Of a stretch of 64,000 nt of DNA, positions 4,450 through 34,062 are shown in pieces (the first letter of the stretch is position 1; the number at the start of each line of letters is the position of its first letter). The stretch comes from Elsinoe ampelina (lineage: Eukaryota), in assembly GCA_010093995.1 (NCBI GenBank), contig ML992512.1:124001-188000 (forward strand), written 5' to 3'. Made by a program: the position numbers and the translations under genes. Under the pieces are notes generated by a model that was not told where the DNA came from, ran no database searches, and worked only from the letters and a program-made list of their open reading frames with translations.

Positions 4450-5274
4450 NNNNNNNNNNNNNNNNNNNNNNNNNNNNNNNNNNNNNNNNNNNNNNNNNNN
4501 NNNNNNNNNNNNNNNNNNNNNNNNNNNNNNNNNNNNNNNNNNNNNNNNNNNNNNNNNNNNNNNNNNNNNNNNNNNNNNNNNNNNNNNNNNNNNNNNNNNN
4601 NNNNNNNNNNNNNNNNNNNNNNNNNNNNNNNNNNNNNNNNNNNNNNNNNNNNNNNNNNNNNNNNNNNNNNNNNNNNNNNNNNNNNNNNNNNNNNNNNNNN
4701 NNNNNNNNNNNNNNNNNNNNNNNNNNNNNNNNNNNNNNNNNNNNNNNNNNNNNNNNNNNNNNNNNNNNNNNNNNNNNNNNNNNNNNNNNNNNNNNNNNNN
4801 NNNNNNNNNNNNNNNNNNNNNNNNNNNNNNNNNNNNNNNNNNNNNNNNNNNNNNNNNNNNNNNNNNNNNNNNNNNNNNNNNNNNNNNNNNNNNNNNNNNN
4901 NNNNNNNNNNNNNNNNNNNNNNNNNNNNNNNNNNNNNNNNNNNNNNNNNNNNNNNNNNNNNNNNNNNNNNNNNNNNNNNNNNNNNNNNNNNNNNNNNNNN
5001 NNNNNNNNNNNNNNNNNNNNNNNNNNNNNNNNNNNNNNNNNNNNNNNNNNNNNNNNNNNNNNNNNNNNNNNNNNNNNNNNNNNNNNNNNNNNNNNNNNNN
5101 NNNNNNNNNNNNNNNNNNNNNNNNNNNNNNNNNNNNNNNNNNNNNNNNNNNNNNNNNNNNNNNNNNNNNNNNNNNNNNNNNNNNNNNNNNNNNNNNNNNN
5201 NNNNNNNNNNNNNNNNNNNNNNNNNNNNNNNNNNNNNNNNNNNNNNNNNNNNNNNNNNNNNNNNNNNNNNNNNN
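4450..5274. other. Assembly gap (N run)
   Basis: Run of N. Confidence 1.
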
Positions 5275-6011: not shown

Positions 6012-6519
6012 GTTCTAATTGCTCCCTTATAGTTATAATCTATTAGACTCTATAAATAACTAGAATTCTATTAGTAAGGCGTCTATACCTTACATAAATA
6101 ATGTTATAGAGACAGACTCTATTAAGTAGACTCCTCTAGAGAAAGAAGAAACTCTCGCGGAGTAGCTACTACACCTATACGCTAAGCGTAAGTGTTTAGA
6201 GCTAGAGCTTAAGGCTTAGAGCCTCGAGGAAGAGATTAAGTAGATATATTATACACGCGATATAGGATATACTTCTACTAGCTTTAGCTATAGCTCGCGT
6301 GCCTCTATAGAGCACGTAGTAAGTAAAGCTAGTACTTAGAGCGTATATAGCTTAGGTGAATTATTTATAAGGCTATCCTTAGAATAACCTTAATTAAGAG
6401 AGCCTTATCTCTATTAGAGTAAGACGCTTAAAGAAGTAAGATCCTTTCTAAAGAATCTCGAGGTTATCTTTACTCTAGCCCCTAAGGCTTATTCTACTAA
6501 TTAGTAGAAGGTGCTATAT

Positions 6520-6982
6520 TGTTACGAACTATCTAAATATAGTCTACACTAGTAGTCTAAGCTAAGCTAAGAACGAGGTAGTTCTACTTCTATAGCAGTA
6601 TAGTACTAAGGTAAGAGTCGAAGAAGGTATATCTTATAGATAATAAAGTACAATTAGATAGTATTATAAAGGCTAGCCTTAGTAATACTAGTATTCGCTA
6701 TCTAAACAAGGTTAACTATAGTACTTTTATAAGGTAAGAACTATTCCTATATACTTATATTCTCTATCGCGTACTCTATGTGCTCTATATACTCCGTAGC
6801 GAAAGCTAGGGGTAGTATAGAGTATATGTCTACTAGTAACCTATACGCTCTATAGTCTCTAGAGTAGAGCTACTAGAGAAGATAGAGAACTAGGTAAACG
6901 TCGGGCTAGGTTACGTAATAACCTTAGTAGTTTAATTAGTCCTAATATCCTTATACTCTAGCTATCCTACTAGTTTGTAACA
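6520..6982 (-). repeat. 3' LTR of gypsy element C (463 bp)
   Basis: Direct repeat of 13072-13534; PPT (rc AAAGGAGGAGAGTAA) lies immediately inside. Confidence 0.95.
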
Positions 6983-7056
6983 TTACTCTCCTCCTTTAAC
7001 CGAGTTGTCCTAATAAGTAAGTATCCCTCCTTGTCCTTATACGCTATATACTAAAT

Positions 7057-7605
7057 ATACCTCCTAGTTGTTAAAGGTATAGTAAATCTAGTACATCTAT
7101 ACGAAAGAATCTCTTAGAGTTTATTAAACTATTCGGAACTAACATACTATAGGCTTGTTCTTGTTATAAATCGAAGGGGCTAGATTATAAGGTCTATATT
7201 CGGTTAAGTATCTATAGCTAGTGTGTCGTAAGTAACTACTTAGGTTATAATATTTAAGTAACAAAATTAGAATAGTAGTGTCTCTAGTCTAAGTATATTC
7301 GTTTACGAAAGGAATTAGTTATAGCTAAGACTACTAGAAAGAAAGCTAAAGAGGCTTATAAAAAGGCAAAAGAGGCTTATTAAAGAGCTATAGGTAATAA
7401 GCTTTACCTACGTAAAGAGATATAGAAATTAGAGAATAAGGTAGAGAAAGTAATCTCTCTAGAGGAGACTTGTATTTAAGTTCTAAAGTAGGAGGAAATA
7501 CTATCGTTAGTAGATCCCGTTCTACTATAGAATTAGTAATTATTTATGCCTAACTCTAACTAGAGTTCTCTATTTAGTAACGATTAAGGTACTTCTATTA
7601 GCTAA
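7057..7605 (+). pseudogene. RIP-degenerate antisense ORF of element C: Zn2Cys6-like cluster plus coiled coil (~182 aa)
   Basis: De-RIPed: MPPSRQRHSKSSTSTRKNLSEFIELFGTDMPQACSRCKSKGLDCKVHIRSGICGQCVVSNHSGCNIQVTKSEWQRLQSEHIRLRKELVAAEAARKKAEEAHKKAEE... Cys1 and Cys5 are intact TGT, the other four are TAT. The stop position is uncertain. Confidence 0.7.
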
Positions 7606-10600
7606 GTAACCTTCCTCGGGCGTTCTTGTTTTTATTTAGTATTAGGAGTACTAAGTCTATCTAGTCAGTTTACTTAGGATAGGTTCTTAATCTAGTAATC
7701 TAGAATTGTTTACGAGGTAAGGTACTTCTCTAGTTCCTATATTGCTTTACTATACTAATATTCCTTCTAGTAAATAAGATAGTAGCGTTTTTCTTTAATA
7801 AGTTTATAACGTAAAACCCTTTCGATCTTATACTATAGCTTCTATGTTTCTTTATCTAGTTCGATAGGTCTAGGTATAGTATTCTATAGTACTTTCTCTA
7901 GTAGTAATATATAAAAGACTAGATAGATCCTTATATATCTTAGTAGTTCTAGTTTATATACGTTCTTGTTTTTCTTTTCTAGGATCTTAAAGGGTTCTAG
8001 TTTAGTATAGTTAAGTTTCTTACTCGGTTGTTTCGTCCTAATATTTTTACTAAGGAGGTAAACTTTCTCCCCCTCCTATAGAATTAGTCCTATAATTCTC
8101 TTCTAGTTAGCAAATTCTGCTATTCTTTATAATATAAATACTATATCGTAGTATAGCTAGTTATATAGTTTCTTAATATTAGCTACTAATATATTAGCAT
8201 CCTTAGATATTAGTTTAATTTCGAGTGTATTATAGTATAGATCCGGGTATATTCTATAGTTTATATAGAATAGTAAAATTCTATTTGCTAACTTTCTATT
8301 ATTAACGGCGAGCTCTACGAGTAGTAGTAGTATTACCTATAAGTCTTACTTATAGTTTAGGTAGCATCGTAGGTACTACTCTAGTACTTAATTTGCCTAT
8401 TTAGTTTGTCTATCCGTTTATAGATAGAAGGAGGTTAATAGCTTATATTTAACTCCTAGTAAGTCTATAAATAACTACTAGAATTATAACGTAAATAGCT
8501 TATCCCTATTAGTTATTAGGTCTCGTAGTACTCTATATTATAAAACAATTATTCGGAGAAAGATAAAGGCTATATCCTCGGTAGTTACTATTGTCTTATA
8601 TAGTACAAAGTAGTAATATTTCGTAAACCTATCTACTAGAACTAGAATACTATTATACTTTATACCTATAAGGGGCTCTTCTAATAGCGGTAGAGGTCCT
8701 ATAAAGTCTATCGTAACTAATTACTATAGTTTGTCTAGTAGTAGCAATAGTTATAGTAGGCTATATAGTTTATATCGAGAGTGTTTAGACTTATAGTATA
8801 TATTACATGTAGTAATATACGTCTTAATATTGTTTCGGAGTTCTTTCTAGAGGTAGTTTCGTATAATAAGTTTAATAGTCTTGTCGATCCTACTATGTCC
8901 TACTATTAGGTTATTATAGTATATTTAAATAACTTCTTTTTTCTGTTCTTACGTAAGCTCCTAGGTAAGGCTATATAACTACTCTACCTTTAGGTACTTA
9001 TAGACTAAAGCGCTATCTTACTACTTTAGTATAGAGGCCTCTATTATTGTTATATTCTTTAAGTAGTCTAGTTGTTAGCTAAGAGCGTCTACTCTGCTGT
9101 TCTCTAATTCCTTAATATAGTAGATCTAGAAATTATAGCTTATAAGTGTTTCTAACTATCGAACCTATTGTCTATTAAGAACCTTAGTTATTATCTAATA
9201 TAGAAGGTTCTTATAGTCGGTATAGACTTATACTAGTAAGGTTGTCCCTTCTAGGTATACTTTCTATTTATAGAACGCTTCTATAATCGTAAGTAATTCC
9301 TTATCGTATATATCGTAGTTAAGTTTAGGTCTAGTTATTTTTCGTAAGTAGTATATAATTAGGTAGTGTTATTCTTCTACGTCCTTCTACGCTAGACACG
9401 CTTCTATTATAAAGTCTAAGGCATCTATTTCTAGTAGTACTTATTAGTCTAGGTTAAAGAGTACTAGGATAGGTACTATTATAAGTCTAAGCTTTAGCTT
9501 CTTAAAGGCCTACCTATAATTTTTATTAAAGATAAAGCTAGTTTTCTTTTTTATAAGGTTAGATATTAGTATAGCTACCTTAGAGAATCCTTTAACAAAT
9601 TTATAGTAGTAGTTAAAGAATTCTAGTAGCGCTTAAACCTCCTTAACTATTATAGGTTCTAGCTAGTCGTTTACTAACTTAATCTTTTTTAAATCGGGTC
9701 CGATACTATTAGTAGATATAATATAGCCTAGAAATTATATCTTATATTTATAAAACTTATACTTAGAGAGCTTTACTAGTAGGTCTTTTTCTTTTAGTTT
9801 CTATAGTACTTTACGAATATGTCTTATATATTTGTTATATATCTTTAAGAAGATAATAATATTATCTAAATATACTAAGATAAAGTCGTTAAGGTATTCT
9901 TATAGAGTGTTATTAATTAACTCTTAGAAGGTTATAGGAGTATTAGTTAACCTAAAGAGTATAACGAGGTACTTATATAGACTCTATTACGTCCTAAAAG
10001 CCGTTTTCTACTCCTCGCTCTTCTTTATTTATACTTAATAATAGACGTCCCTAATATTAATTATAGTAAACTATTTAGCTCTAAGTAGCTAGTCTTAAAG
10101 TTCGTTAATCCTTAGTAGAGGATAGTAATTCTTCCTAGTAAGTACATTAAGTTTCTAGTAATTAATATATATTTATAACGTCCTATCCTTTTTAGGTATA
10201 AAAAGCACTCTATACGTAATAGGTAATTTTAATAGTTATATAAATCCTTTAAGTAAGTACTTATCGATATAGTTCTTAAGGATATTCTCCTTCTATTTCG
10301 ATAGTAGTATAAGACCTTAATAGTATGTTAGGGATTTACTCTCTTTAAAGAGTATTTCGTAATTCTATAGTTTATACTAGAGTAAGGCTATAATGCTTTC
10401 TCTTTCTTTAAATAAGTCCTTAAAGTCTTTATATTCCGGCGGAAGTACTTAATTACTTACGCTAGTAATAGCCCTAACTATTAGTTATACCTATACTATC
10501 CTTATAGTTAGTATCCGTAGAGCTAATTATACTCCCTACATTCTATAATTATACTTAGGAAATTCGAGTGTTTCTTTAATCTAGTCTATGTCTAGATTAT

Positions 10601-12955
10601 ATTATTAAAGCTAGTCTATACTAAGTACTATATTGTACTATATATTAACTATATCGATTAATTGTCTTTCCGTATATATTTCGATTTAGATTATAACGTT
10701 TCGTAGTTTCTAAGTAACTTTCCTATTCTTCCCTATAGAGGTTCTATCCGCTATAGTAAGTAGGTAAGGTAACTCCTTCTAATATTAATAAGGTTTAAGC
10801 TAATTAGCAACTGTTATAGAGACGTAGCTATAGTTAGCTCCTAAATCTATTATTGCTCTTACCTTATTTTCTTATATCTAGACTTCTAGTATAAAGTAAT
10901 TTAATATATAGATCTTTATTATACTAAGGCTTTAGCTAGTGTTATTGTCTTACCTTATTAGGTAACAACTTACTAGTTTTTTGTTATTATAGCTCCTTAG
11001 ATAAGTAGCTAATTCCTTTCTATACGTATCTACTATTAGTACTATATCTATTAGGTAAGTCGTGTCTTATTACTATTTAATATAGTAAGGTAAACTTCTA
11101 GTGCTTATGTTCCTTAGTGACTATAAAGTTCAATAATTCTCTACTAGTTGTACTAAGTAGTATCGTATACCTATATTAGTATAACTATTCCTTCTAGGTA
11201 TAGCTAGGCGTTAGCATCGAAGACGAAAGTAGGTTATATAGATTTATCTTATTATGTCCTATTCTAGTAGTAGGTGTATATTATTATATAATTCCTCTAT
11301 ATCCCTATAAGGTATACTTTAAGTCATCTACCTAGTAGTAGTATATCGTTATTGTCGGATAAGTCCTTATCTATATTATTATACTATAGTTGTTCGGTAT
11401 ATTTCTTATTATATTTCTCTTCGTCGCTACTACCCCTAGTATAGTTATAGTTAGTAAGGCTATACCGAGTATACTCTCGTACTTAGCTATAAGGAATAGT
11501 ACTACCTATCTCGATTACTAAGAAGTCTATAGTATATTTAAGACTAATAGCGTCTTCTCTAAGTATATCGTGTAAGTAGATAGAGTAGTACTATTTATAA
11601 TTTAGATTTATACATTTCTAGAGCGACATATAATATACCTTTCCTTGTAGTTTACTATAAGGGCTAAAGGTAAGGCTACTATATTGTCGTATAGCACTTG
11701 CGTTCTAATACTTTATCTTAATAATTATATATTAGTAATTATCGCTAACTACCTTCTATAGTTAGTTAGTTTTACTACTAATTATAAGGAACCCTTCTAG
11801 GTTAGGTTCCTAGTCTAACTATTTCGTTAGTTGCCTACGCTTAGATAGCTTATATAGAAACTAACTAGATCCCTACTTATCTAATAAGTAAATATAACAA
11901 GAGTTATTATAATATACTATCTATAATAGCGTTGCGTGTTAGCTTTGTCGTTTACTATTAGTTATAGAGATATTAAGTGTAATATCTAGAGAGAATTTTC
12001 TTGCCTCTTAAGTCGTTATAGACTTCTTCTATGTTTCCTTACCTACGCTAAAGGTTGTTAGGTCTTCTATAGTAGTATCGGCCTTTTTTTCTACTAGCCT
12101 AGTAACTATTATATATAATCTATTAGCTAGCGCCTCTTATTAGTAGTCTCTAGCTCGATGCCTAGGTCTTTTATACTTAAAATATAGATTGTCTTATCTA
12201 TACTTCTCTCTCTCTTTTCTACTAAGGAACTTTCCTCTACGACCTTAGCTCTTTACCTATAAGAGGCAACCTTCGTATATAGCGTTAAGTTCTATAGAGT
12301 CTCTATAGTTTCGAGAGAAACACGTATATCTAGTATTTACCTTATATTCTCTATAACATTCTATATGTCGTTTGTAAAGTTAGTTATTAATAGTAATTAT
12401 AGTATCTACTAGTTCTTAGAGGCTATTAGGCAGCTTAGGTATTATTTAGTCTTTAACTAAGTCGTTTAGTCCTTAGTAGAATGCTAAATATTTAGCACTA
12501 TTATCCTAGTCTAAGTGTATTACGAGTTGTTAGAACTAGGAATAGTACTAGGCTATAGACCTACGTTGTTATAGTTATTAGATCTTTGTTATAGTAACAT
12601 ATTCCTTGTTAGATATATTAAAGACTTACTTAATCTTCGCTTAGAAGATACTAAAACTCTTAAAGATAGCTTTCGTATCTAGACTTAGTTATCCGTCTAG
12701 GTAGCTACTTATATAAGGCTTAAACTACCTAAAGGTAGCGCCTTTAAGGTATATCCTAGTATAGAGAACCTTTACTACGTCGTTAGTATATTTGTCTCTC
12801 TCTAGAGTAAAGAAGGCTTTAAGTTAAATAAGAAAGCGCCTTAAGTAGGCACGGTCTCTATAGAAGAGTTCTACCTCTAGCTTAGGCTTACTTTATCCTT
12901 CCCCTATACTAAGAGACTTTCTATATTCGCTCGAGGTTAAACTAGTAGTAGATAT
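7585..12955 (-). pseudogene. RIP-degenerate gag-pol of element C
   Basis: Reverse complement of the D gag-pol. Gag spans 12955-10973 and the slippery heptamer is at 10976-10982. Confidence 0.88.
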
Positions 12956-13071
12956 ATCGTTAATAGTAAGTCTTCTAAGCTTACTAGTAATTAAAGATAC
13001 TAATAGTAACTTAGAGCAAGAGTTACTTATTAACCTCGTAGTGTGCTATACTATAGTAAGGGTAGTTAAAA

Positions 13072-13534
13072 TGTTATAAACCGTCTAAATATAGCCTACG
13101 CTAGTAGTCTAAGCTAAGCTAAGAACGAGGTAGTTCTACTTCTATAGTAGTATAGTACTAAGGTAAGAGTCGAAGAAGGTATATCTTATAGATAATAAAG
13201 TACAATTAGATAGTATTATAAAGGCTAGCCTTAGTAATACTAGTGTTTACTATCTAGACAAGGTTAACTATAGTACTTTTATAAGGTAAGGACTATTCCT
13301 ATATACTTATATTCTCTATTATATACTCTATATACTCTATATACTTCGTAGCGAAAGCCGAGGGTAGTATAGAGTATATGTCTACTAGTAACCTATACGC
13401 TCTATAGTCTCTAGAGTAGAGCTACTAGAGAAGATAGAGAACCGGGTAAACGTTAGGCTAGGTTACGTAATAACCTTAGTAGTTTAATTAGTTCTAACGT
13501 CCCTACGCTCTAGCTATTCTACTAGTTCGTAACA
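13072..13534 (-). repeat. 5' LTR of gypsy element C (463 bp)
   Basis: Direct repeat of 6520-6982. Confidence 0.95.
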
Positions 13535-14299
13535 TATATAGAGTTATATTTCTTACTAGCGAGCTAGATAAGATATAGTATTACTACTACTACGTAGATA
13601 GCCTAGAGAGCTATATATAGAAGCAATTTCGCTAGTTCGTGTAGAACGTAGTTAATAACTCTATTAACTATAGAGTATATATAACTCTTATATATAAGAG
13701 TACCTAACAATATAAGGGCTAATCTATCTAGGTCTTTACTTTAGAACTTGCTACCTTAGAGAAGTAACTAGCTCTCTACTTAGAAGAATAAAGAGTATAC
13801 TATCTCCTTACTAAGTTATAGCCTACACTACGTACTACTATTATTAAGCACTATACTATTCCGGCTACTTACTAAGAATTAGTATCTCTTAGCTCTTATA
13901 TTAAATTATTAAACTATATAAGCTATAAGTGTTCTACCTACGAAGAGAACTTAGACCTACTACGTAAGTATAGGACTTAAGGCAGCTCTCGAGGAGGAAA
14001 CTACTACTAGTCTAGTAGTAGCTCTTAAGCTCGTTGTAAGTAGAAGGCTACTAACCTATCTACTAAATAGTTTAGTAGGTAAGGGGGCACCTCTAAGGTA
14101 TAGAAGAAGAACGCTAAGTATTATAGCTATAGTAGAACTAGCTATATTAAGCCGGAGTATAGATCGAAGTACTTATAGAAAGATAAGGAGTTATAGGCGG
14201 TATATAAGGTAGCTACTATAGACAAGGTTAATAACTCTAAGCTAGTAAACTCTAAGGGCTTAGCTAATAAGCGTAACTAAGCCCTACTTCCCTTTTAAT

Positions 14300-22847: not shown

Positions 22848-24964
22848 TGGATTTTCTATACTATAATTAACTACTAAGTAGTTTAATCTATAGTATAGTC
22901 TAGCCCTTTTATAGATTTAAGTTTTATAATAAGATCTTTTCCTATATAGCTACTATTATTATTTATACTTCTAATTATTACCTCTAATAATAGTAAATTA
23001 TCTATATTATTACTTCTAATAATAGATTTCTATTACTATTATTACTATAAATAATAGAAGGTACTAGATATATATACTATCTCGTTCCTATTTATTCTTC
23101 TTTCTAAAACCTCTCTTTCTTATTATTATAGCTTCTTACATATAACTCTATCTCGACCTAGAAAATTTAATTCTCTACTAGCCTTATACTATAACTCGTA
23201 GTAACTACGCTAGGCTACTATACTTACGTTAGTATAAAGCTTATATCTGCCGTATAACTAAGTAATTTATTAATAGTAAGGAAAGGTAGACTACTTATAT
23301 CTATAATAATAATAGAGGCTCTAAACTTCGCTATAAGGCCTATTACTCTTATAATACCTCTTATAACTTTGTTAGTATTCCTAATCTAATACTACTATAT
23401 TCTCTAATAAGTATTAGTATAATAGCTCCTAGACTAATAATATTTTTAACCTTATTAACATATAGTATATACTTAATTATTACTATCTTAATCTTATCTA
23501 GGATTAGATTATAATCTTTAATATATACTATAGCGTTAAACGCTAGTAGAACGAGCTAGATAATTCTAAATCCTAAGGATCTTAATAGTTCTAATTCTTC
23601 TAGTAACTAGTTTAGTAGTATAATGTAAATAAAGCGTTAGCGGGCTAATAGCTTTAGTAGGTTTTTTATAACATAGATATACCTTTAATTTTAAAAATTT
23701 TTTACTCTACTCTAATATAGATATGCCTTTAATTTTAATTATGTTACTTATTCCTTAGCCTCTATATAATATAAGTCTAGCCTATAGAAATTAATATACC
23801 TCTTACTTTAAAGTTTCTATAGTATAGTATAAGATTTATTATTATATATTATAAACACGTTAATAAATATTCTATAATAAGTTATCTACCTTTATTAAAT
23901 AATATAATCTATACTAATTAATATATCTAAAGCTTCTAACTTTAAGTTAGTACTTAACCTATAACTTAGAGATACTATATATTTCTCTCTAGCTATTCTA
24001 GTAGAATTATATAGCTTTATAATCTCTACTTAGAATGTTAAACATAATAGTAAAATATAACAATTATAACTCCTTAAATGCCTACCTTTTTAACCTAGTA
24101 AGAGATCTAAGAATTAACCTCTATAACAAGCCTAGAAAGACTAGTAGAGTTAAATAATTATAGTATCTATATATAGAGAAGGTACGAAAAATGTACTAAA
24201 TTAGAATTCTAAAGCACGTTCTAGAGGTCTATAGGCAAATATTATAGAAGCTACTAAGATTTATAATAGAGAACTATAAGTTATTTATAACAGGTGTAGT
24301 AATATACTTACTTATCCTACTTACTATCGTATTAGTAATAAAGCAATAGAGAGACATCTTAAGTCCTAGAAATATACTATAGTTATTAAGTACTACTACG
24401 AGTAAAGCTCTACTTAAAAAGCTCTTAAGTAATTATAATAGCATATAAAAAGCATTTACTAAATTGTCTCTCTATTCTCTACTAATACTTTCTACTATAA
24501 GCTTGTTTATATAGTTACTAACTATAACTAGTCTTTCTATATAGTTAAGTATTCTACCTTTAGCTAATTCCTCTACTTTCTCTAACCTAATATTACTATA
24601 CCTAGCCGAACTCTTTTTTAAGTAATACTAGTAGTATAATTCGAGAGGTTATAAAAATTGCTACTCTCTAACCTTAGTAAGAACACTAAGCTTTTAATAG
24701 TGTTAGATAGATAGTTTACTAATAACTACTTAGAGTTTATTATAATTAAAGACTATTTTATTAATAACTAATAGTAATTATAAGAGTAGCTCCTAGAAAT
24801 AATACTTCTTTAAGGTTGCTACACTAGTAAAGCTATAGCAAATAAGGTAATATAGGTACTAAAAGATATATCGGTTAAGCAATAACTACTTATAGTTATA
24901 GTAGATAATATATTAAATAATAGAACACTCCGAGAGTCTCTCGAAAGAAGCCTAGATATACTAG

Positions 24965-25428
24965 TATTACGAACTAGTAGAACAAGCTAGAGCGTAGAGA
25001 CGTTAGGACTAATTAAACTACTAAGGTTATTACGTGACCTAGCCCGACGTTTACCCGGTTCTCTATCTTCTCTAGTAGCTCTACTCTAGAGACTATAGAG
25101 CGCATAGGTTACTAGTAGACATATACTCTATACTGCCTCCGGCTTTTGCTACGGAGTATATAAAGTACATAGAGTATACAATAGAGAATATAAGTATATA
25201 GGAATAGTCTTTACCTTATATAAGTACTATAGTTAACCTCGTCTAGATAGTAAATACTAGTATTACTAAGGCTAGCCTTTATAATACTATCTAATTGTAC
25301 TTTATTATCTATAAGATATACCTTCTCTAACTCTTACCTTAGTACTATACTACTATAGAAGTAGAACTACCTTGTTCTTAGCTTAGCTTAGACTACTAAC
25401 GTAGGCTATGTTTAGACAGTTCGTAACA
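24965..25428 (+). repeat. 5' LTR of gypsy element D (464 bp)
   Basis: Direct repeat of 31522-31985 and inverted repeat of the C LTRs. Confidence 0.95.
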
Positions 25429-25544
25429 TTTTAACTACTCTTACTATAGTATAGCACGCTACGAGGTTAATAAGTAACTCTCGCTTTAAGTTACTATTAG
25501 TATCTTCGATCGCTAGTAAGCTAGGAAAGCTTACTATTAACGAT

Positions 25545-27530
25545 ATGTCTACTACTAGTTTAACCTCGGGCGAACATAGAAGGTCTATTAGTATAGAAGA
25601 ACGAAGCAAGCCTAAGTTAGAAGTAGAACTCTTCTATAGGGACTACGTCTACTTAAGGCACTTCCTTGTTTAACTTAAAGCCTTCTTTACTCTAGAGAGA
25701 GACAAATATACTAACGACGTAGTAAAGGTTCTCTATACTAGGATATACCTTAAAGGCGCTACCTTTAGGTAGTTTAAGCCTTATATAAGTAGCTACCTAG
25801 ACGGATAACTAAGTCTAGATACGAAAGCTATCTTTAAGAGTTTTAGTATCTTCTAAGCGAAGATTAAGTAAGTCTTTAATATATCTAACAAGGAATATGT
25901 TACTATAACAAAGATCTAATAACTATAACAACGTAGGTCTATAGCCTAGTACTATTCCTAGTTCTAACAACTCGTAATACACCTAGACTAGGATAATAGT
26001 GCTAAATATTTAGCATTCTACTAAGGACTAAACGACTTAGTTAAAGACTAAATAATACCTAAGCTGCCTAATAGCCTCTAAGAACTAGTAGATACTATAA
26101 TTGCTATTAATAACTAACTTTATAAACGACATATAGAATGTTATAGAGAATATAAGGCAAACACTAGATATATGTGTTTCTTCTAAAACTATAGAGACTC
26201 TATAGAACTTAATACTATACGCGAAGGTTGCCCCTTATAGGTATAAGGCTAAAGTCGTAGAGGAAAGTTCCTTAGTAGAAAAGAGAGAGAGAAGTATAGA
26301 TAAGATAATCTATATTTTAAGTGTAAAAGACCTAGGTATTAGGCTAGGGACTACTAACAAGAGGCGCTAGCTAATAAATTACATATAATAGTTACTAGGC
26401 TAGTAGAGAAAAAGGCTAACACTACTATAGAAGACCTAATAACCTTTAGCGTAGGTAAGGAAACATAGAAGGAGTCTATAATAACTTAAGAGGTAGTAGA
26501 ATCCTCTCTAGATGTTATACTTAATATCTCTACGACCGATAGTAAATAACAAAGCTAATACGCGACGCTATTATAGATAGTATATTACGATAACTCTTGT
26601 TATATTTACTTATTAGACAAGTAGGGATCTAGTTAGTTTCTATATAAGCTATCTAAGCGTAGGTAACTAACGAAATAGCTAAACTAGGAACCTAACCTAG
26701 AAGAGCTCCCTATAATTAGTAGTAATATTAACTAACCTTAGAAGGTAGTTAGCGACAATTACTAATATATAATTATTAAGACGAAGTATTAGAGCGTAAG
26801 TACTATACAATAACATAGTAGCCTTACCTTTAGCTCTTATAGCACACTATAAGGAAAGGTATATTATATGTCGCTCTAGAAATATATAAATCTAGATTGT
26901 AAATAGTACTATACTATTTACTTATACGATGTACTTAGAGAAGAGGCTATTAGTCTTAAATACACTATAGACTTCTTAGTAATTAAAATAGGTAGTACTA
27001 TTCCCTATAGCTAAGTACAGGAATGTACTTAGTATAGCCTTACTAACTATAACTATGCTAGGGGTAGTAGCGACGAAGAGGAATATAACGAAGAATATAC
27101 TAAATAACTATAATATAACAACATAGATAAAGACTTATTTAATAATAACAACGACGATATACTACTACTAGGCGGACAACTTAAAGTATACCTTATAGGG
27201 ATATAGAGGAATTATATAATAATATACACCTACTACTAGAATAGGACATAATAAGACAAATTTACATAACTTGTTTTTGTCTTTAATACTAATGCCTAGC
27301 TACACCTAGAAGAAATAGTTATACTAATATAGGTGTATAACACTACTTAGTGTAACTAGTAGGGAATTATTAGACTTTATAGTTACTAAGGGACTTAGGC
27401 GCTAGAAGTTTACCTTACTATGTTAAATAGCGACAAAACATAACTTGTCTAATAGATATAGTACTAATAGTAGATACGTATAGGAAGGGATTAGCTACTT
27501 ATCTAAGGAGCTACAATAACAAAAAACTAG
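25545..27530 (+). pseudogene. RIP-degenerate long gag of element D (~661 codons)
   Basis: Intact ATG at 25545, in frame with knuckle CFEC.RPGHQARDC (~26313) and with the terminal aca aaa aac tag. Confidence 0.8.
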
Positions 27531-30500
27531 CTAGTTGTTACCTAATAAAGCAAGATAATAACACTAGCTAAAGCCTTAATATAATAAAGATCTACACGTT
27601 AAACTACTTTATACTAGAAGTCGAAATATAAGAGAGTAAGGTAAGAGCAATAATAGATTTAGGAGCTAACTATAGCTACGTCTCTATAACAGTTACTAAT
27701 TAGCTTAAACCTTATTAACACTAGAAGGAGTTACCTTACTTACTTACTATAGTAGATAGAACCTCTATAGGGAAGAACAGGAAAGTTACTTAGGAACTAT
27801 AAAACGTTATAATCTAAATTAAAACATATATAGAAAAACGATTAATCGATATAGTTAACATATAGTATAACATAGTACTTAGCATAGACTAGCTTTAATA
27901 ACATAATCTAGACGTAGACTAGATTAAAGAAACACTTAAATTTCCTAAGTGTAATTATAGAATATAAGGAGTATAATTAGCTCTACGGATACTAACTATA
28001 AGGACAGTATAGGTACAATTTATAGTTAGAGCTATTACTAGCGTAAGTAATTAAGTACTTCCGCTAGAATATAAAGACTTTAAGGACTTATTTAAAGAAA
28101 GAGAAAGTATTGTAGCCTTACTCTAATATAAACTATAGAATTACGAAATACTCTTTAAAGAGAGTAAATCCCTAATATACTATTAAGGTCTTATACTACT
28201 ATCGAAATAAGAAGAGAACGTCCTTAAGAACTATATCGATAAGTACTTACTTAAAGGATTTATACGATTATTAAAAATTACCTATTATATATAGAGTACT
28301 TTTTGTACCTAAAAAGAATAGAATATTATAAATATATATTAATTACTAGAAACTTAATACACTTACTAGGAAGAATTACTATCCCTTACTAAGGATTAAC
28401 AAACTTTAAGACTAACTACTTAGAGCTAAATAGTTCACCGCAATTAACATTAGAGACGCCTATTATTAAGTATAAATAAAGAAGAGTAAGGAGTAGAAAA
28501 CGGCTTTTAGGACGTAATAGAGTCTATATAAGTACCTCGTTATGCCCTTTAGGTTAACTAATGCTCCTATAACCTTCTAAGAGTTAATTAATAATACTTT
28601 ATAAGAATACCTTAATAACTTTATCTTAGCATATTTAGACAATATTATTATCTTCTTAAAGATATATAATAAACATATAGGATATATTTATAAAGTGATA
28701 TAGAAACTAGAAGAAAAAGACCTACTAGTAAAGCTCTCTAAGTGTAAGTTTTATAAATATAAGATACAATTTCTAAGCTATATTATATCTACTAATAGTA
28801 TCGGACCCGATCTAAAGAAGATTAAGTTAGTAAATAACTAGCCGGAACCTACGATAGTTAAGGAGGTTTAAGCGCTACTAAGGTTCTTTAACTACTACTA
28901 TAAGTTTATTAAAGGATTCTCTAAGGTAGCTACGCTAATATCTAACCTTACAAAAAAGGAAACTAGCTTTATCTTTAACGAGAGATATAGGTAGGCCTTT
29001 AAGGAGCTAAAGCTTAGGCTTATAATAGTACCTGTCCTAGCACTCTTCGACCTAGACTAATAAGCACTACTAGAAATAGATACTTTAGACTTTGTAATAG
29101 AAGCGTATCTAGCATAGAAGGACATAGAAGAATAACGCTACCTAATCGTATACTACTTATAAAAAATAACCGGACCTAAACTTAACTATAACATATACGA
29201 TAAGGAATTACTTATAATTATAGAAGCGTTCCGTAAATAGAGAGTATACCTAGAAGAGACAACCTTACCTATATAAGTCTATACCGACTATAAGAACCTT
29301 CTATATTAGATAATAACTAAGGTTCTTAATAGACAATAGGTTCGATAGTTAGAAACACTTATAAGCTATAACTTCTAGATCTACTATATTAAGGAATTAG
29401 AGAACGGCGGAGTAGATGCTCTTAGCTACTAGCTAAATTACTTAAAAAATATAACAGTAATAGAGGCCTCTATACTAAAGTAGTAGAATAGCGCTTTAGT
29501 CTATAAGTACCTAAAGGTAGAGTAGTTATATAGCCTTACCTAGGAGCTTATATAAGAACAGAAAAAAGAAGTTATTTAAATATACTATAATAACCTAACG
29601 GTAGAACATAGCAGGATTAATAAGACTATTAAACTTATTATATAAAACTACCTCTAGAAAGAACTCCAAAACAATGTTAAGACGTATATTGCTATATGTA
29701 ATATGTGCTATAAGTCTAAATACTCTCGATATAAACTATATAGCCTACTATAACCCTTGCTACTACTAGACAAACTATAGTAATTAGTTATAATAGACTT
29801 TATAGGACTTTTACCGCTATTAGAAGAACCTCTTACAGGTATAAAGTATAATAGTATCCTAGTTCTAGTAAATAGATTTACGAAGTATTACTACTTTATA
29901 CTATATAAGACAATAGTAACTACTAAGGATATAGCCTTTGCCTTCCTTCGAATAATTGTTTTACAACATAGAGTACTACGAGACTTAATAACTAATAGAG
30001 ATAAGCTATTTACGTTACAATTCTAGTAATTATTTATAGACCTACTAGGAGTTAAATATAAGCTATTAACCTTCTTTTATCTATAAACGGATAGACAAAC
30101 TAAATAGGCAAATTAAGTACTAGAGTAGTACCTATAATACTACCTAAACTATAAGTAAGACTTATAGGTAATACTATTACTACTCGCGGAGCTCGCTATT
30201 AACAATAGAAAGTTAGTAAATAGAATTTTACTATTCTACGTAAACTATAGAATATACCCGGATCTATACTATAATACACTTAGAATTAAGCTAATATCCG
30301 AGGATGCTAACATACTAGTAACTAATATTAAGAAACTATATAACTAGCTATACTATAATATAGTATTTATATTACGAAGAATAGTAGAGTTTACTAACTA
30401 GAAGAGAATTATAGGACTAATTCTATAGGAGAAGGAGAAAGTTTACCTCCTTAGTAAAAATATTAAAACGAAACAACTAAGTAAGAAACTTAACTACACT

Positions 30501-30920
30501 AAACTAGGACCCTTTAAGATCCTAGAAAAGAAAAACAAGAACATATATAAACTAGAACTACTAAGACAAATAAGGATCTATCTAGTCTTTTATATATTAC
30601 TACTAGAGAAAGTACTATAGAATACTATACCCGGACCTATTAAACTAGATAAAGAAACATAGGAGCTATAGTATAAGATCGAAAGGGTTTTACATTATAA
30701 ACTTATTAAAGAAAAACGCTACTACCTTATTTACTAGAAGAGACATTAGTATAGTAAAGTAATATAGGAATTAGAGAAGTACCTTACCTCGTAAATAATC
30801 CTAGATTACTAGAATAAGAACCTATTCTAAGTAAACTAACTAGACGGACCTAGTACTCCTAATACTAAACAAAAACGAGAATGCCTAAGGAAGGTTACTT
30901 AGCTAATAGAAGTACCTTAA
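27521..30920 (+). pseudogene. RIP-degenerate pol of element D (-1 frame to gag; PR-RT-RH-INT-chromodomain)
   Basis: De-RIPed AMIDSGA (~27646), WKTAFRT.WGLYEYLVMPFGLTNAPATFQ (~28494), AYLDDI, LETDASD, HPQTDGQTE, and chromodomain YLIHWKG..HSEATWE (~30722). Confidence 0.9.
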
Positions 30921-31447
30921 TCGTTGCTAAATAGAGAACTCTAGTCGAAGTTAGGCATAAATAATTACTAATCCTATAGTAGGACGGGATCTACTAACAA
31001 TAGTATTTCCTCCTACTCTAGGACTTAAATACGGGTCTCCTCTAGAGAAATTACTTTCTCCGCCTTATTCTTTAATTTCTATATCTCTTTATATAGGCGA
31101 AGCTTATTGCCTATAGCTCTTTAATAAGTCTCTTTTACCTTTTTATAAGCCTCTTTAGCTTTCTTTCTAGTAGCCTTAGCTATAACTAATTCCTTTCGTA
31201 AATAAATATGCTTAGACTAGAGACGCTACTATTTCGATTTTGTTACTTAAATATTATAACTAGAGTAGTTACTTACGACATACTAGCTATAGATACCCGA
31301 CCGAATATAGACCTTATAGTCTAGCCTCTTTAATTTGTAACGAGAATAAGCCTATAGTATATTAGTTCCGAATAGTTTAATAAACTTTAAGAGATTCTTT
31401 CGTGTAGATATACTAGATTTACTATGCCTTTAACAACTAGGAGGCAT
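30899..31447 (-). pseudogene. RIP-degenerate antisense ORF of element D: Zn2Cys6-like cluster plus coiled coil
   Basis: Homolog of 7057-7605 with the same length. The ATG is intact here (rc aat ATG cct cct), and all six Cys positions are TAT/TAC, the expected RIP products of TGT/TGC. Confidence 0.7.
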
Positions 31448-31521
31448 ATTTAGTATATAGCGCGTAAAGATAGAGAAGAATACTTACTCGTTAGAACAAC
31501 TCGATTAAAGGAGGAGGGTAA

Positions 31522-31985
31522 TGTTATAAACTAGTAGAATAAGCTAGAGCGTAGAGACGTTAGGACTAATTAAACTACTAAGGTTATTACGTGACCTAGC
31601 CTAATATTTACCCGGTTCTCTATCTTCTCTAGTAGCTCTACTCTAGAGACTATAGAGCGCGTAGGTTACTAGTAGACATGTACTCTATACTGCCCCTAGC
31701 TTTTACTATAAAGCATATAGAGTATATAGAGTACGCGATAGAGAATATAAGTATATAGGAATAGTTCTTACCTTATGTAAGTACTATAGTTAACCTCGTC
31801 TAGATAGCAAACACTAGTATTGCTAAGGCTAGCCTTTATAATACTATCTAATTGTACTTTATTATCTATAAGACATACCTTCTCTAACTCTTACCTTAGT
31901 CCTATACTACTATAGAAGTAGAACTACCTCGTTCTTAGCTTAGCTTAGACTACTAACGTAGGCTATGTTTAGACAGTTCGTGACA
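31522..31985 (+). repeat. 3' LTR of gypsy element D (464 bp)
   Basis: TGTTA...GTGACA followed by TSD ACTAG. Confidence 0.95.
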
Positions 31986-34062
31986 ACTAGATATTAAGTA
32001 AAATATAAAGGAGAATATAATTCTATATCTAGTATATATTATTAATCTTATTATATAGAATATTATTAAGTATCTAAAACTTAAAACAAGCAAAGAGATT
32101 AATATAGTAGAGAGGTTATAAAACTACTATATCTAGGATATTATAATATTAGTCTCTATTCCGAATTTACTATAGAAGATATATAGTATTTATTATATTG
32201 TTTTATTACGTTCTAATATTAGTAAGCTCTATATAATATATATTATAATTAATAGTTCCCTATAATAGTTTAAATAATTTATAGACCTTTAGAAGCATCT
32301 ACTACCTAAGAAGAGGTACTAAGTTATATATAATATTAAGACACGCTAGAATTTAACATATAATATATATAAGCAAGTATTAAAGCTTAAACCTTTTATT
32401 AAGAATTAGCTTAAGAATAAGACTATACTCCGAGTACTAAGGACTTCTTCTAAAGTATTAATATCTAAACTGCTCTCTAATATTAATAACTATAACCTTA
32501 CTAAGTTATTACTTAATCTAAATAAGTAGTAGCATCTTAAATTTATTATAGTAATACTAAAGAACTTTAAGAAAGTAATAATATAGCTAAGTACTAGTAG
32601 TCGACCTCTTCTCTAGTATATATAGACGATATATAATATACTCTTTAACTTCTTAGATAAAATTAAAGAGGGCCTAATTAGTACTAAGGATTATAATAAT
32701 CTACTTATATAGCTAGCTACTATATAAAAGGTAGTAGTAAAGGGACAAGAGAAGCTTAAGAAATACTATATATAAACTAAGGATAGGAAGGGTATACTCT
32801 ATAACTATATAATAATTCTTAACCCCTCTAAGAAGCTTATAGTATATAATATAAGCGCCTATAGTCTTTCTAGTAAGTAGTAGCTAATAATACTTAGAAT
32901 ATAGAGACTTAGGAACCTTACTATAAAGACAACTATTATAAGGAGTTCTTATAGTACCTTCGTTAGTATAATAAGATAGACCCCCTTAATTACTTTACTA
33001 GCCTCTACCTCTAAGCTATTATATTACTAGTAACGAGACTAGTTTAACTAACTAAAACGAAAGAAGCAAAGTTACGCTCTATTACTATAAAGCGATAGTC
33101 TATACTTCTTATTTATTCCCTCGAAGTATACTATAGTTAAAGAAGGTAAGAACTACCTTATAATACTACTAGTCTATATTTAGAAACTTAATATCTTATA
33201 GTAGTAGAAAGAGAAAGAGAAAGAATATCTATTACTATTACATATAGTAAAAGATATTCTAGTAATCCTAATTATAAGAGTTAGAGTTAAGTAAGTGTTT
33301 AATATTATAAAGAATATTATTAGTACACGGAGGTATAAATTAGTAGCCTAAACTATTTAGTAGCTTATAATATTAAAGTATAAGCTTAAAGTAGCCTCGC
33401 TATTAGGATAGATTAATATAGAACTAGAGATAGAGAATAAGGCTACTAATACTAACGATTTACTTAAATTATTATTAAGGACTAATATAAATTAACTAGA
33501 TAATATTACTATAGTACTAAGCTATAGTAATAATAACTACTCTAAATTAGAGAGAGAGAGAGTATAGGGAAGTTAATAGTATTCTAGTAGAAAGCGTTAG
33601 CAGATTTACTAGCTAGATTATATTTGTACTTCTAGTATAATTTGTATATTTTGCTTACTACCTCCCCTTACGTAATAAAGTAGCATAATAAAGTTAGACC
33701 TAAAAATTTATAAGATATAGTAACGCGCTAAGCTATAGAGTAAGCGCTTTAACTACTAACCTATTAGGTACTATTAGGCAGGTACTAGGTTAGGTACCCC
33801 CCCTCTAAGGGCAACACTATAACTATATACTAACCCTACCTACCTTAGTATAGTACCTAACCTAGGGTAACCTCTCCTTACTAAGCTTTTATACCTAACC
33901 CCTACCTAACGTAGTGCTATATCTATCTAAAAACTACCCTAGGTAGTTCTTAATAGATTCTAATACTTAAAAAGTAAGATAGTAGAGAATTAACTAATAA
34001 ATAGAGTAGGAAAGCAACTAAGTAATATACTTATATAGGGGTAGTTATACTAGGCTTATAAC

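Follow-up and report, generated by a model that had tools for sequence, protein, structure and literature searches.

In a degraded Ty3/gypsy chromovirus of the fungus Elsinoe ampelina, an antisense frame of 183 codons between pol and the 3′ long terminal repeat (LTR) is a copy, killed by repeat-induced point mutation (RIP), of a genuine accessory gene carried by an ascomycete clade of such elements. The DNA analyzed is a stretch of 64,000 nt from contig ML992512.1 (assembly GCA_010093995.1, positions 124,001 to 188,000), hereafter the window, and it holds two sister elements, A and B, each with one copy of the frame. Relatives from other sequence collections show that the gene is conserved and under constraint, that elements with open gag and pol carry it intact, and that one relative has spliced antisense RNA of it. 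We regard it as highly probable that this is a real, conserved element gene whose protein combines a zinc cluster with a coiled coil. Taken as a whole, the best explanation of the data is a conserved antisense gene for an element-encoded Zn2Cys6-like regulator, a reading that we favor with some reserve.

Intact homologues of the antisense frame

A first-pass annotation, made by a model from the letters of the window alone, had proposed a 549-nt open reading frame (ORF) antisense to pol, with six Cys residues in Gal4-type spacing, a heptad-like segment, and stop codons explained as RIPed Gln or Trp. The frame is present as described: its intact ATG stands at 31447, it occupies the gap from the chromodomain-like end of pol to the polypurine tract (PPT), and the ATG is separated by 74 nt from the 3′ LTR, whose first base is 31522. 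We searched 1.84 billion representative proteins with a profile of the two window copies, their stop codons translated as X. This profile retrieved 21 proteins at E ≤ 1e-3, five of them at E ≤ 1e-10, with a best match at 3.3e-19 that spans query residues 10-152; most matches are of similar length. Intact relatives of the antisense protein measure 152-214 aa.

These relatives supply the ancestral residues that RIP has obscured in the window. Window codons 34, 37, 44, 53 and 56 fall on family columns that are Cys in 38/38 intact relatives, and codon 64 on a column that is Cys in 37/38, in agreement with the Cys assignments of the annotation. Of the two Tyr codons that it had read as His, codon 47 was borne out (His in 35/38), while codon 61 corresponds to Q, N or S in the family. 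The account of the stops as RIPed Gln and Trp codons is likewise upheld by the homologue columns: stop 169 aligns with Trp in 34/38, stop 73 with Phe in 22 and Trp in 16, and the remaining stops lie mostly on columns where Gln occurs among relatives. The argument drawn from the stops themselves did not survive. The antisense ORF of A contains 17 stop codons (16 internal plus the terminal one), all TAA or TAG and none TGA, but all six frames of the stretch carry 15-22 stops per ~183 codons, every one TAA or TAG, and frame -1 has fewer (15) than the proposed frame. As no frame stands out, we dropped this argument as evidence.

The Cys spacing fares no better when read from the window alone. The pattern [YC]x2[YC]x6[YC]x5-12[YC]x2[YC]x6-8[YC], matched ten times in a six-frame search of the 28,726 AT-rich nucleotides, and only two of the ten are the antisense ORF's own copies. 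Since Tyr makes up 9.5% of the six-frame translations of this region, Gal4 spacing written as Y/C matches often by chance, and with ten chance-level matches the spacing by itself was dropped as well. Nor did the two window copies correct each other. Their antisense ORFs share 83% protein identity, yet all 17 stops fall at the same codons in both, as do most pol stops, which indicates that the ancestor of A and B was probably already RIPed or that the sites are saturated. Two of the six inferred Cys (codons 34 and 56) are read as TGT, in copy B only; the remaining four read TAY in A and B alike, and so do the two Tyr codons that had been taken as His. With every stop in common and just two Cys confirmable, comparison of A and B was rejected as a tool for reversing RIP. 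From window-internal evidence, then, the zinc-cluster reading is a guess, and the frame owes its more-than-chance status to the external homologues and to nothing else.

Those homologues decide against a chance frame, in which the Cys pattern would stem from a free choice of Cys or His for Tyr in a Tyr-rich, RIPed sequence. Besides the unremarkable stop counts and the promiscuous Y/C pattern, such a frame has in its favor that searches with the RIPed copies came back empty: a Pfam scan of the translated window copies matched 0 families, and a word-based protein search with copy B scored 0 of 33 candidates. It is refuted, however, by full-length similarity to at least 21 intact proteins of equal length, by the placement of all inferred Cys on invariant or near-invariant Cys columns, and by synteny with pol at all 12 loci tested (below). 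We give it practically no credence.

The intact proteins share a distinctive sequence. In alignment A5 (n = 38), five Cys, S47, G48 and A128 are invariant, and the sixth Cys, R46 and H44 reach at least 90%. The Cys residues are spaced x2, x6, x8, x2 and x6-8, the last gap being mostly x6 or x7 and x8 in two (e.g., L002, P0002); relatives and window codons alike follow the Gal4-type spacing rule C-x2-C-x6-C-x5-12-C-x2-C-x6-8-C. Intact members can be summarized by the motif C-x2-C-x6-C-(K/R)-V-H-(V/I)-R-S-G-x-C-x2-C-x6/7-C-(D/N)-(V/I)-x-(V/I)-T-x-x-E-(W/F)-x-(R/K)-L, after which come a long charged helical segment, the sequence EEAIAVEE, and a C-terminal LSPxTWxAxxGLxDxFW. Several of the family matches are RIP-like themselves, with Tyr at Cys positions, as expected for the gene of a repeated element.

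A search with a profile of the family itself scored 8,000 candidates and recovered, at E ≤ 1e-3, no fewer than 181 clusters of proteins; most derive from environmental fungi, and many lie on element-sized contigs of ~6-7.4 kb. Bathelium mastoideum, Elsinoe australis, Hortaea werneckii, Sporormia fimetaria, Aulographum hederae and Friedmanniomyces endolithicus are named among the matches listed, and all six we take to be Dothideomycetes. The nearest ESM Atlas clusters (122, 62 and 210 members) are Ascomycota 'hypothetical proteins' without Pfam families, and three members bear a UniRef name starting 'Zn(2)-C6 fungal-t', a label of the source's own. Members among the matches listed in near-length searches carry no precomputed Pfam domain, and no further Pfam domain rose above threshold in the 38 members scanned.

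A fixed place in intact elements

Scanning the family alignment against metagenome contigs yielded 21 loci (L001-L021), of which 19 contain a full ORF of 152-207 aa and the other two are truncated. The neighboring ORF on the minus strand proved to be a gypsy pol at 12/12 loci tested; it ends in SH3_Tf2-1 and Chromo domains, with gag beyond it. ORF and pol are arranged tail to tail, their ends ranging from 9 nt apart to an overlap of 185 nt (15 loci), and 47-97 nt separate the ATG from the junction of the PPT with the LTR start, TGTTA, in the five loci with upstream sequence. The order of ATG, PPT and LTR in the window is the same as in these five intact loci. Furthermore, many elements that carry the ORF have gag and pol fully open. 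Because position, orientation and spacing are conserved across loci, the antisense gene is a fixed and tightly packed part of the element.

Evidence of constraint came from the one pair of loci that is unsaturated at synonymous sites. Between L013 and L021 the ORF shows nonsynonymous (dN) and synonymous (dS) divergences of 0.045 and 0.462, giving an omega of 0.10, while the last 280 pol codons of the same pair give 0.22. The antisense frame is thus under purifying selection in this pair, as the first-pass annotation required of intact copies. Across ORF pairs, the proportion of nonsynonymous differences is below that of synonymous ones (pN<pS) in 119/120, a weak statistic given that most pairs are saturated at synonymous sites. 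Averaged over 11 loci, protein distance is 0.52 in the ORF and 0.43 in the pol C-terminus, which puts conservation of the ORF at a level close to that of other proteins of the element. Long co-descent of ORF and pol is plausible by synteny; the trees do not show it.

The same data bear on whether a fragment of a host Zn2Cys6 gene merely lies beside a few elements or was lately captured by them. In favor of this, ORF and pol distances correlate only weakly, and one copy (L004 and L005) sits in a short element that lacks pol. Against this stand the common position, orientation and packing at 15 loci, at 11 of which the ORF proteins differ by 52% on average, as well as the element-sized contigs of many members and the scarcity of attached domains, none being precomputed among the matches listed and no further one passing threshold in the 38 members. 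We consider a host origin of this kind very improbable, and an element gene remains the preferred reading.

The short element just mentioned is a non-autonomous, internally deleted copy of 2.4 kb on a genomic contig (L004:4673-7086 and L005:9551-11964). Two 330-nt LTR-like repeats (95% identical) surround a 175-aa antisense ORF with a truncated tail, together with a gag-like N-terminal fragment that scores just under the Pfam cut-off, and a host-like MIF4G/MA3 gene (L005:3460-6306) lies several kb away. As this deleted element has the ORF without pol, the antisense gene has been retained in a non-autonomous copy.

Two further features of the contigs were recorded. The contig ends of L003, L010, L013, L018 and L021 repeat each other over 123-174 nt at 99-100% identity, each contig forming a circle-like unit of 6.2-6.8 kb that comprises a single LTR and the internal region. 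Assemblers are expected to produce such units by collapsing the two LTRs or tandem elements, and true circular DNA or RNA may also be represented. In L001, L006, L010, L013 and L018, a nearly invariant stretch of ~18 nt, (T)TTGAACACCCTCAAG, stands immediately before the gag ATG and after the LTR end. It sits at the expected primer-binding site, and its start is not the usual TGG.

Spliced antisense RNA in one relative

The L019 element is represented in RNA. In 21 metatranscriptome runs, labelled leaf litter and possibly from one campaign, 0.64-0.79 of the sampled words of L019:1-1400 were present. In each of the four runs compared with L019 there is a contig from which 62 nt (1312-1373) are missing, their ends reading GT..AG on the strand of the ORF, which is the plus strand of L019 and antisense to pol. 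The skipped piece reads GTATGT...CTGAC...TAG, a typical fungal intron consensus, and begins 20 nt past the ORF stop codon, in the 3′ untranslated region (UTR). On the pol strand it would have CT..AC ends, and its removal would break the pol frame. Among collection contigs of the same element, the 62 nt are missing exactly in L016 and L018 and present in L017 and L019. From contigs lacking a 62-nt GT..AG intron on the ORF's strand we conclude that a spliced antisense transcript through the ORF exists. Assembled contigs show no RNA start, end or level, and this evidence concerns the L019 lineage, not the RIPed copies of the window.

Given the short distance from LTR to ATG, 47-97 nt in relatives and 74 nt in the window, we propose that transcription of this mRNA would begin within the 3′ LTR or beside it. 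Neither poly(A) ends nor common ends were seen in the short contigs viewed as possible transcripts. Contig depth was higher on the ORF-bearing contig (41.7 versus 2.7-6.5 in run X2, and also in X14); it was left unused, since one figure per contig cannot rank genes. A loose intron-like motif up to 35 nt past the stop in L001, L006, L007, L008, L015, L017 and L019 serves as a lead only. In the window itself, the sequence right after the terminal TAA (30865-30898, minus strand) reads GTAACC...TTTAG and sits where relatives carry an intron-like GT..AG (2 nt past the stop in L008, 20 nt in L019); RIP makes this reading uncertain.

Protein architecture and predicted fold

AlphaFold modeling of the L019 protein with the 38-sequence alignment gave a mean predicted local distance difference test (pLDDT) of 84.3. 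The model begins with a helix at residues 9-23, continues with a Cys knot in which short helices (32-37 and 51-56) start just after the two CxxC pairs, and then forms a single unbroken helix of 85 residues (66-150). Block-mean pLDDT over this long helix is 76-98, with values of at least 89 from residue 71 and of 97-98 over 81-140. A less confident linker follows, and then two short helices in the conserved tail. When hydrophobicity along the long helix is averaged over the family, its strongest periodicity is 3.50 residues (power 35.3, compared with 16.8 at 3.60); of 2000 shuffles, 14 attain that power. The helix thus bears a coiled-coil signature, and the heptad-like segment of the annotation corresponds to this predicted helix. 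A homodimer prediction for the L019 protein, in which the alignment was not used, scored 0.08 (mark 0.32) and counts neither for nor against dimerization.

Comparison of the model with PDB structures by Foldseek returned 27 matches, none of them significant, 25 of which are Zn2Cys6 DNA-binding domains; the leftovers are two unrelated low-ranked rows at E 8.1. Pho7 was matched with a probability of 0.94-0.96 and a root-mean-square deviation (rmsd) of 2.1 over 35 columns, Ppr1 with an rmsd of 1.4 over 30 and LAC9 with 2.1 over 32, and Gal4, Hap1, Put3, Leu3, AlcR and Cep3 were also retrieved. A PDB sequence search with the family profile found coiled-coil look-alikes (Gfh1 at E 0.0019, keratins) and the LAC9 zinc domain at E 2.8. 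We read the Cys knot as a divergent Zn2Cys6-like cluster that is not a member of the curated family by threshold.

The family also has a conserved N-terminal helix, SSTxRRxxLxxFIxxFG. DUF5651, a Pfam family without known function, is matched below threshold by 19/38 members (best E 0.0006) at residues ~19-46, which span the N-terminal helix and the first CxxC, and such matches are more frequent than those to Zn_clus (16/38). They may point to a related uncharacterized family. Overall, the protein of ~190 aa would consist of five parts: a basic N-terminal helix, the six-Cys knot, the 85-residue heptad helix, a short linker, and an acidic and aromatic tail (LSPxTWxAxxGLxDxFW). It would bind two zinc ions as a Zn2Cys6-like cluster and dimerize through the long helix.

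LTR repeats and a possible regulatory function

The U3 regions of related elements contain heptamers in 3-7 copies, built around GAGCA or GATCA. Eight loci (L002, L006, L010-L013, L018, L021) have CTGAGCA/CTGATCA and five (L003, L007, L008, L009, L015) have CAGAGCA/GAGAGCA; the heptamers are likely to be enhancer repeats. The second Cys loop of the protein (SECLR versus NECNR) hints at tracking the repeat type, a correspondence that relatedness confounds. As separate observations, an E-box, TCACGTGA, lies ~70-120 nt from the LTR start in most loci, and the 3′ LTR of the window (31522-31985) retains TTACGTGACC at the matching place.

We propose that the protein would enter the nucleus and regulate its element sequence-specifically, the most likely target being the repeated heptamers in the U3 of the element's own LTR. 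The tail may work as a small activation motif; the annotation had described the protein as lacking an activation region, and the conserved acidic and aromatic C-terminal motif could be one. That the protein is a DNA-binding transcription regulator of the element we judge to be nearly as probable as its opposite, the balance tilting slightly to the doubtful side. Its most specific form, offered tentatively and at well below even chances, is a clade-wide Gal4-like factor, translated from a spliced antisense mRNA that starts from the 3′ LTR, which would sit as a dimer on CWGAGCA/CTGATCA arrays in its own U3 and whose tail would switch transcription on or off.

Several observations weigh against the regulator reading or the evidence beneath it. 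The omega value comes from the single pair L013/L021, all other pairs being saturated at synonymous sites, and the correlation of ORF and pol distances is weak (Mantel r 0.35, reached by 526/9999 permutations). The RNA evidence consists of assembled contigs from one element lineage, the 21 runs may be a single campaign, and whether DNA runs carry the joined form is unreported. The PF00172 model, named as a check by the first-pass annotation, does not confer formal membership: it matches 16/38 members with a best E of 0.0053 and listed scores of 9.3-12.9 bits, and all member scores fall under the gathering cut-off of 21 bits. In Gal4-type domains the fourth position after Cys2 is a basic residue that contacts bases, and a Pro usually precedes Cys4; in A5 the former position is mostly Gly or Asn (C-x-x-x-G-R-V-C), and the loop between Cys3 and Cys4, (K/R)-V-H-V-R-S-G-x with invariant S and G, has no Pro. 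Finally, the LTRs contain no conserved CGG-Nx-CCG pair, such pairs being found in 10/15 LTRs at no conserved place.

Some of these points would fit a real element gene that is not a transcription factor and acts at another step, for instance in binding to Gag or to RNA of the element, in anchoring the pre-integration complex on chromatin, or in resisting host silencing. Such a role would accommodate the partial agreement with canonical Zn2Cys6 domains, the lack of conserved CGG-type sites in the LTRs, the weak DUF5651 matches in 19/38 members, and an R-S-G loop and N-terminal helix without counterpart in the matched Gal4-type structures, of which 30-35 knot columns were aligned. It accords less well with the Foldseek results, which apart from the two unrelated rows are all DNA-binding Zn2Cys6 domains, with the order of knot, linker and heptad helix, which is that of Gal4-type DNA-binding dimers, and with a tail that seems to resemble activation motifs. 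We think a role at another step unlikely, if far from negligible, and retain the Zn2Cys6-like regulator as the working explanation.

Elements A and B and their RIP setting

GC content is 0.11-0.35 per kb over the initial, AT-rich 34 kb of the window and ~52% over the remainder. In element A the RIP indices TpA/ApT and (CpA+TpG)/(ApC+GpT) are 2.0 and 0.22, compared with 0.51 and 1.31 in the GC-rich part, and the AT-rich part is marked by RIP. A and B differ by 609 substitutions, 585 of which are transitions. Both window copies of the antisense gene are dead pseudogenes in this RIPed, AT-rich DNA. The coordinates of all features are collected in Table 1. For the RIPed pol translation of A, no Pfam match to Chromo was listed at a maximum E of 0.01. 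Two runs of N in the AT-rich region, at 1913-2282 (370 bases) and 4450-5274 (825 bases), hide what repeats the first 5 kb of the window contain.

Table 1. Features of elements A and B and of the antisense frame, in window positions
Feature	Coordinates	Strand	Basis or remark
Antisense accessory ORF, RIP-inactivated, 549 nt, 183 codons	30899..31447	-	ATG at 31447
Six-Cys cluster, codons 34-64, C-x2-C-x6-C-x8-C-x2-C-x7-C	31256..31348	-	TAY at all six positions in A
Heptad helix remnant, ~codons 70-150	30998..31240	-	Alignment to relatives
Copy B of the antisense ORF, in element B	7057..7605	+	Start codon ATA, not ATG
Element A, RIP-degraded Ty3/gypsy chromovirus, 7021 nt	24965..31985	+	Self-BLAST, LTR ends read
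Target-site duplication ACTAG, 5 bp, around element A	24960-24964 and 31986-31990		Sequence read
5′ LTR of A, 464 nt, start TATTA (RIPed TGTTA), end TAACA	24965..25428	+	93.4% identity with 3′ LTR
gag-pol frame of A	25428..30821	+	TAA/TAG read as X
Reverse transcriptase in A pol	28344-28787	+	Pfam match on X-translation
RNase H in A pol	28977-29369	+	Pfam match on X-translation
Integrase zinc domain in A pol	29559-29723	+	Pfam match on X-translation
SH3_Tf2-1 in A pol	30435-30614	+	Pfam match on X-translation
Chromodomain-like stretch, end of A pol	~30672-30821	+	By eye; SH3 alignment to L001 pol, architecture of relatives
Polypurine tract AAAGGAGGAGGGTAA, immediately 5′ of 3′ LTR	31507..31521	+	Read; same layout in intact relatives
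3′ LTR of A, 464 nt, start TGTTA; candidate antisense promoter source	31522..31985	+	Self-BLAST, ends read
Element B, inverted sister of A, 91% identical	6519..13535	-	Self-BLAST

Comparison with known systems

The position and orientation of the gene were already known from other elements; its Gal4-like make-up, its breadth in Dothideomycetes and its spliced antisense RNA appear to be new. For the window itself the consequence is small, as both copies are dead. In annotation terms, a real gene proved recoverable through RIP damage by careful reading, and small 'hypothetical proteins' of this kind in Dothideomycete genomes are transposon genes.

The closest parallel is brtn, reportedly described in the element Boty by Zhao et al. 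in 2011 (Virology 417:248). In later accounts, brtn is an extra antisense gene in the gap between pol and the 3′ LTR of Boty-like chromoviruses of Botrytis and Sclerotinia (PMC8365987, PMC7264820, PMC4227169, PMC5987419), its function is unknown according to the review among them (PMC7264820), and its place and orientation are those of the antisense gene described here. The citing passages mention neither a zinc cluster nor a coiled coil for brtn. Boty comes from Leotiomycetes whereas the named members of the present family are Dothideomycetes, and the two were compared by description only; no match named BRTN or Botrytis occurs among the matches listed of the 181. Nor did the literature searched tie any protein of the Zn2Cys6 or binuclear-cluster type to an antisense ORF of a retrotransposon, the original brtn description lying outside this coverage. 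If the proposed function is true, it would assign a role to the unexplained antisense genes found in gypsy elements of fungi, with brtn as their described representative.

Plant elements offer a likeness of position. The antisense aORF-3R of Grande1, RIRE2, Retand and PvRetro13 lies between pol and the 3′ LTR, is conserved within families and has no known function, according to the same review (PMC7264820), so that it shares the place and orientation of the present gene within an LTR retrotransposon. It belongs to another kingdom and to other element lineages and is not described there as a zinc-cluster or coiled-coil protein; the likeness is one of position, not of sequence.

In make-up, the protein resembles Gal4-type domains (Gal4, Ppr1, Put3, Hap1, Leu3, Pho7, LAC9), with which it shares the six-Cys spacing and, in its predicted model, short helices after two CxxC pairs and a linker followed by a heptad helix. 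It differs from them in its sub-threshold Pfam scores, in an R-S-G loop in place of Pro, in Gly or Asn in place of the base-contacting Lys of Gal4, in its extra conserved N-terminal helix, in its length of only ~190 aa, and in being encoded by a retrotransposon. Should Gal4-like self-regulation prove true, such elements would be a possible source or sink of host Zn2Cys6 regulators, and host genes beside solo LTRs could be rewired.

LTR retrotransposons are generally regarded as dependent on host transcription factors, and the family would be an exception to this dependence if its protein binds DNA. A regulatory function, if true, would also provide a handle on how the elements control their own expression or escape silencing, and would turn each solo LTR into a potential binding site of an element-encoded regulator. 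An analog of such an arrangement is HBZ of human T-cell leukemia virus type 1 (HTLV-1), an antisense basic leucine zipper (bZIP) factor expressed from the 3′ LTR through a spliced antisense mRNA, with a DNA-binding region and a coiled-coil helix. HBZ and the present protein differ in kind, bZIP against zinc cluster, with no relation in sequence or fold (Pfam scans of the 38 members found no bZIP family), and the intron described here is in the 3′ UTR. The likeness would be one of outline: a small protein from the antisense strand beside the 3′ LTR, a spliced mRNA, and a DNA-binding-type region joined to a dimerization helix. If Gal4-like self-regulation holds, the antisense gene would be to its retrotransposon what HBZ or Tax is to HTLV-1.

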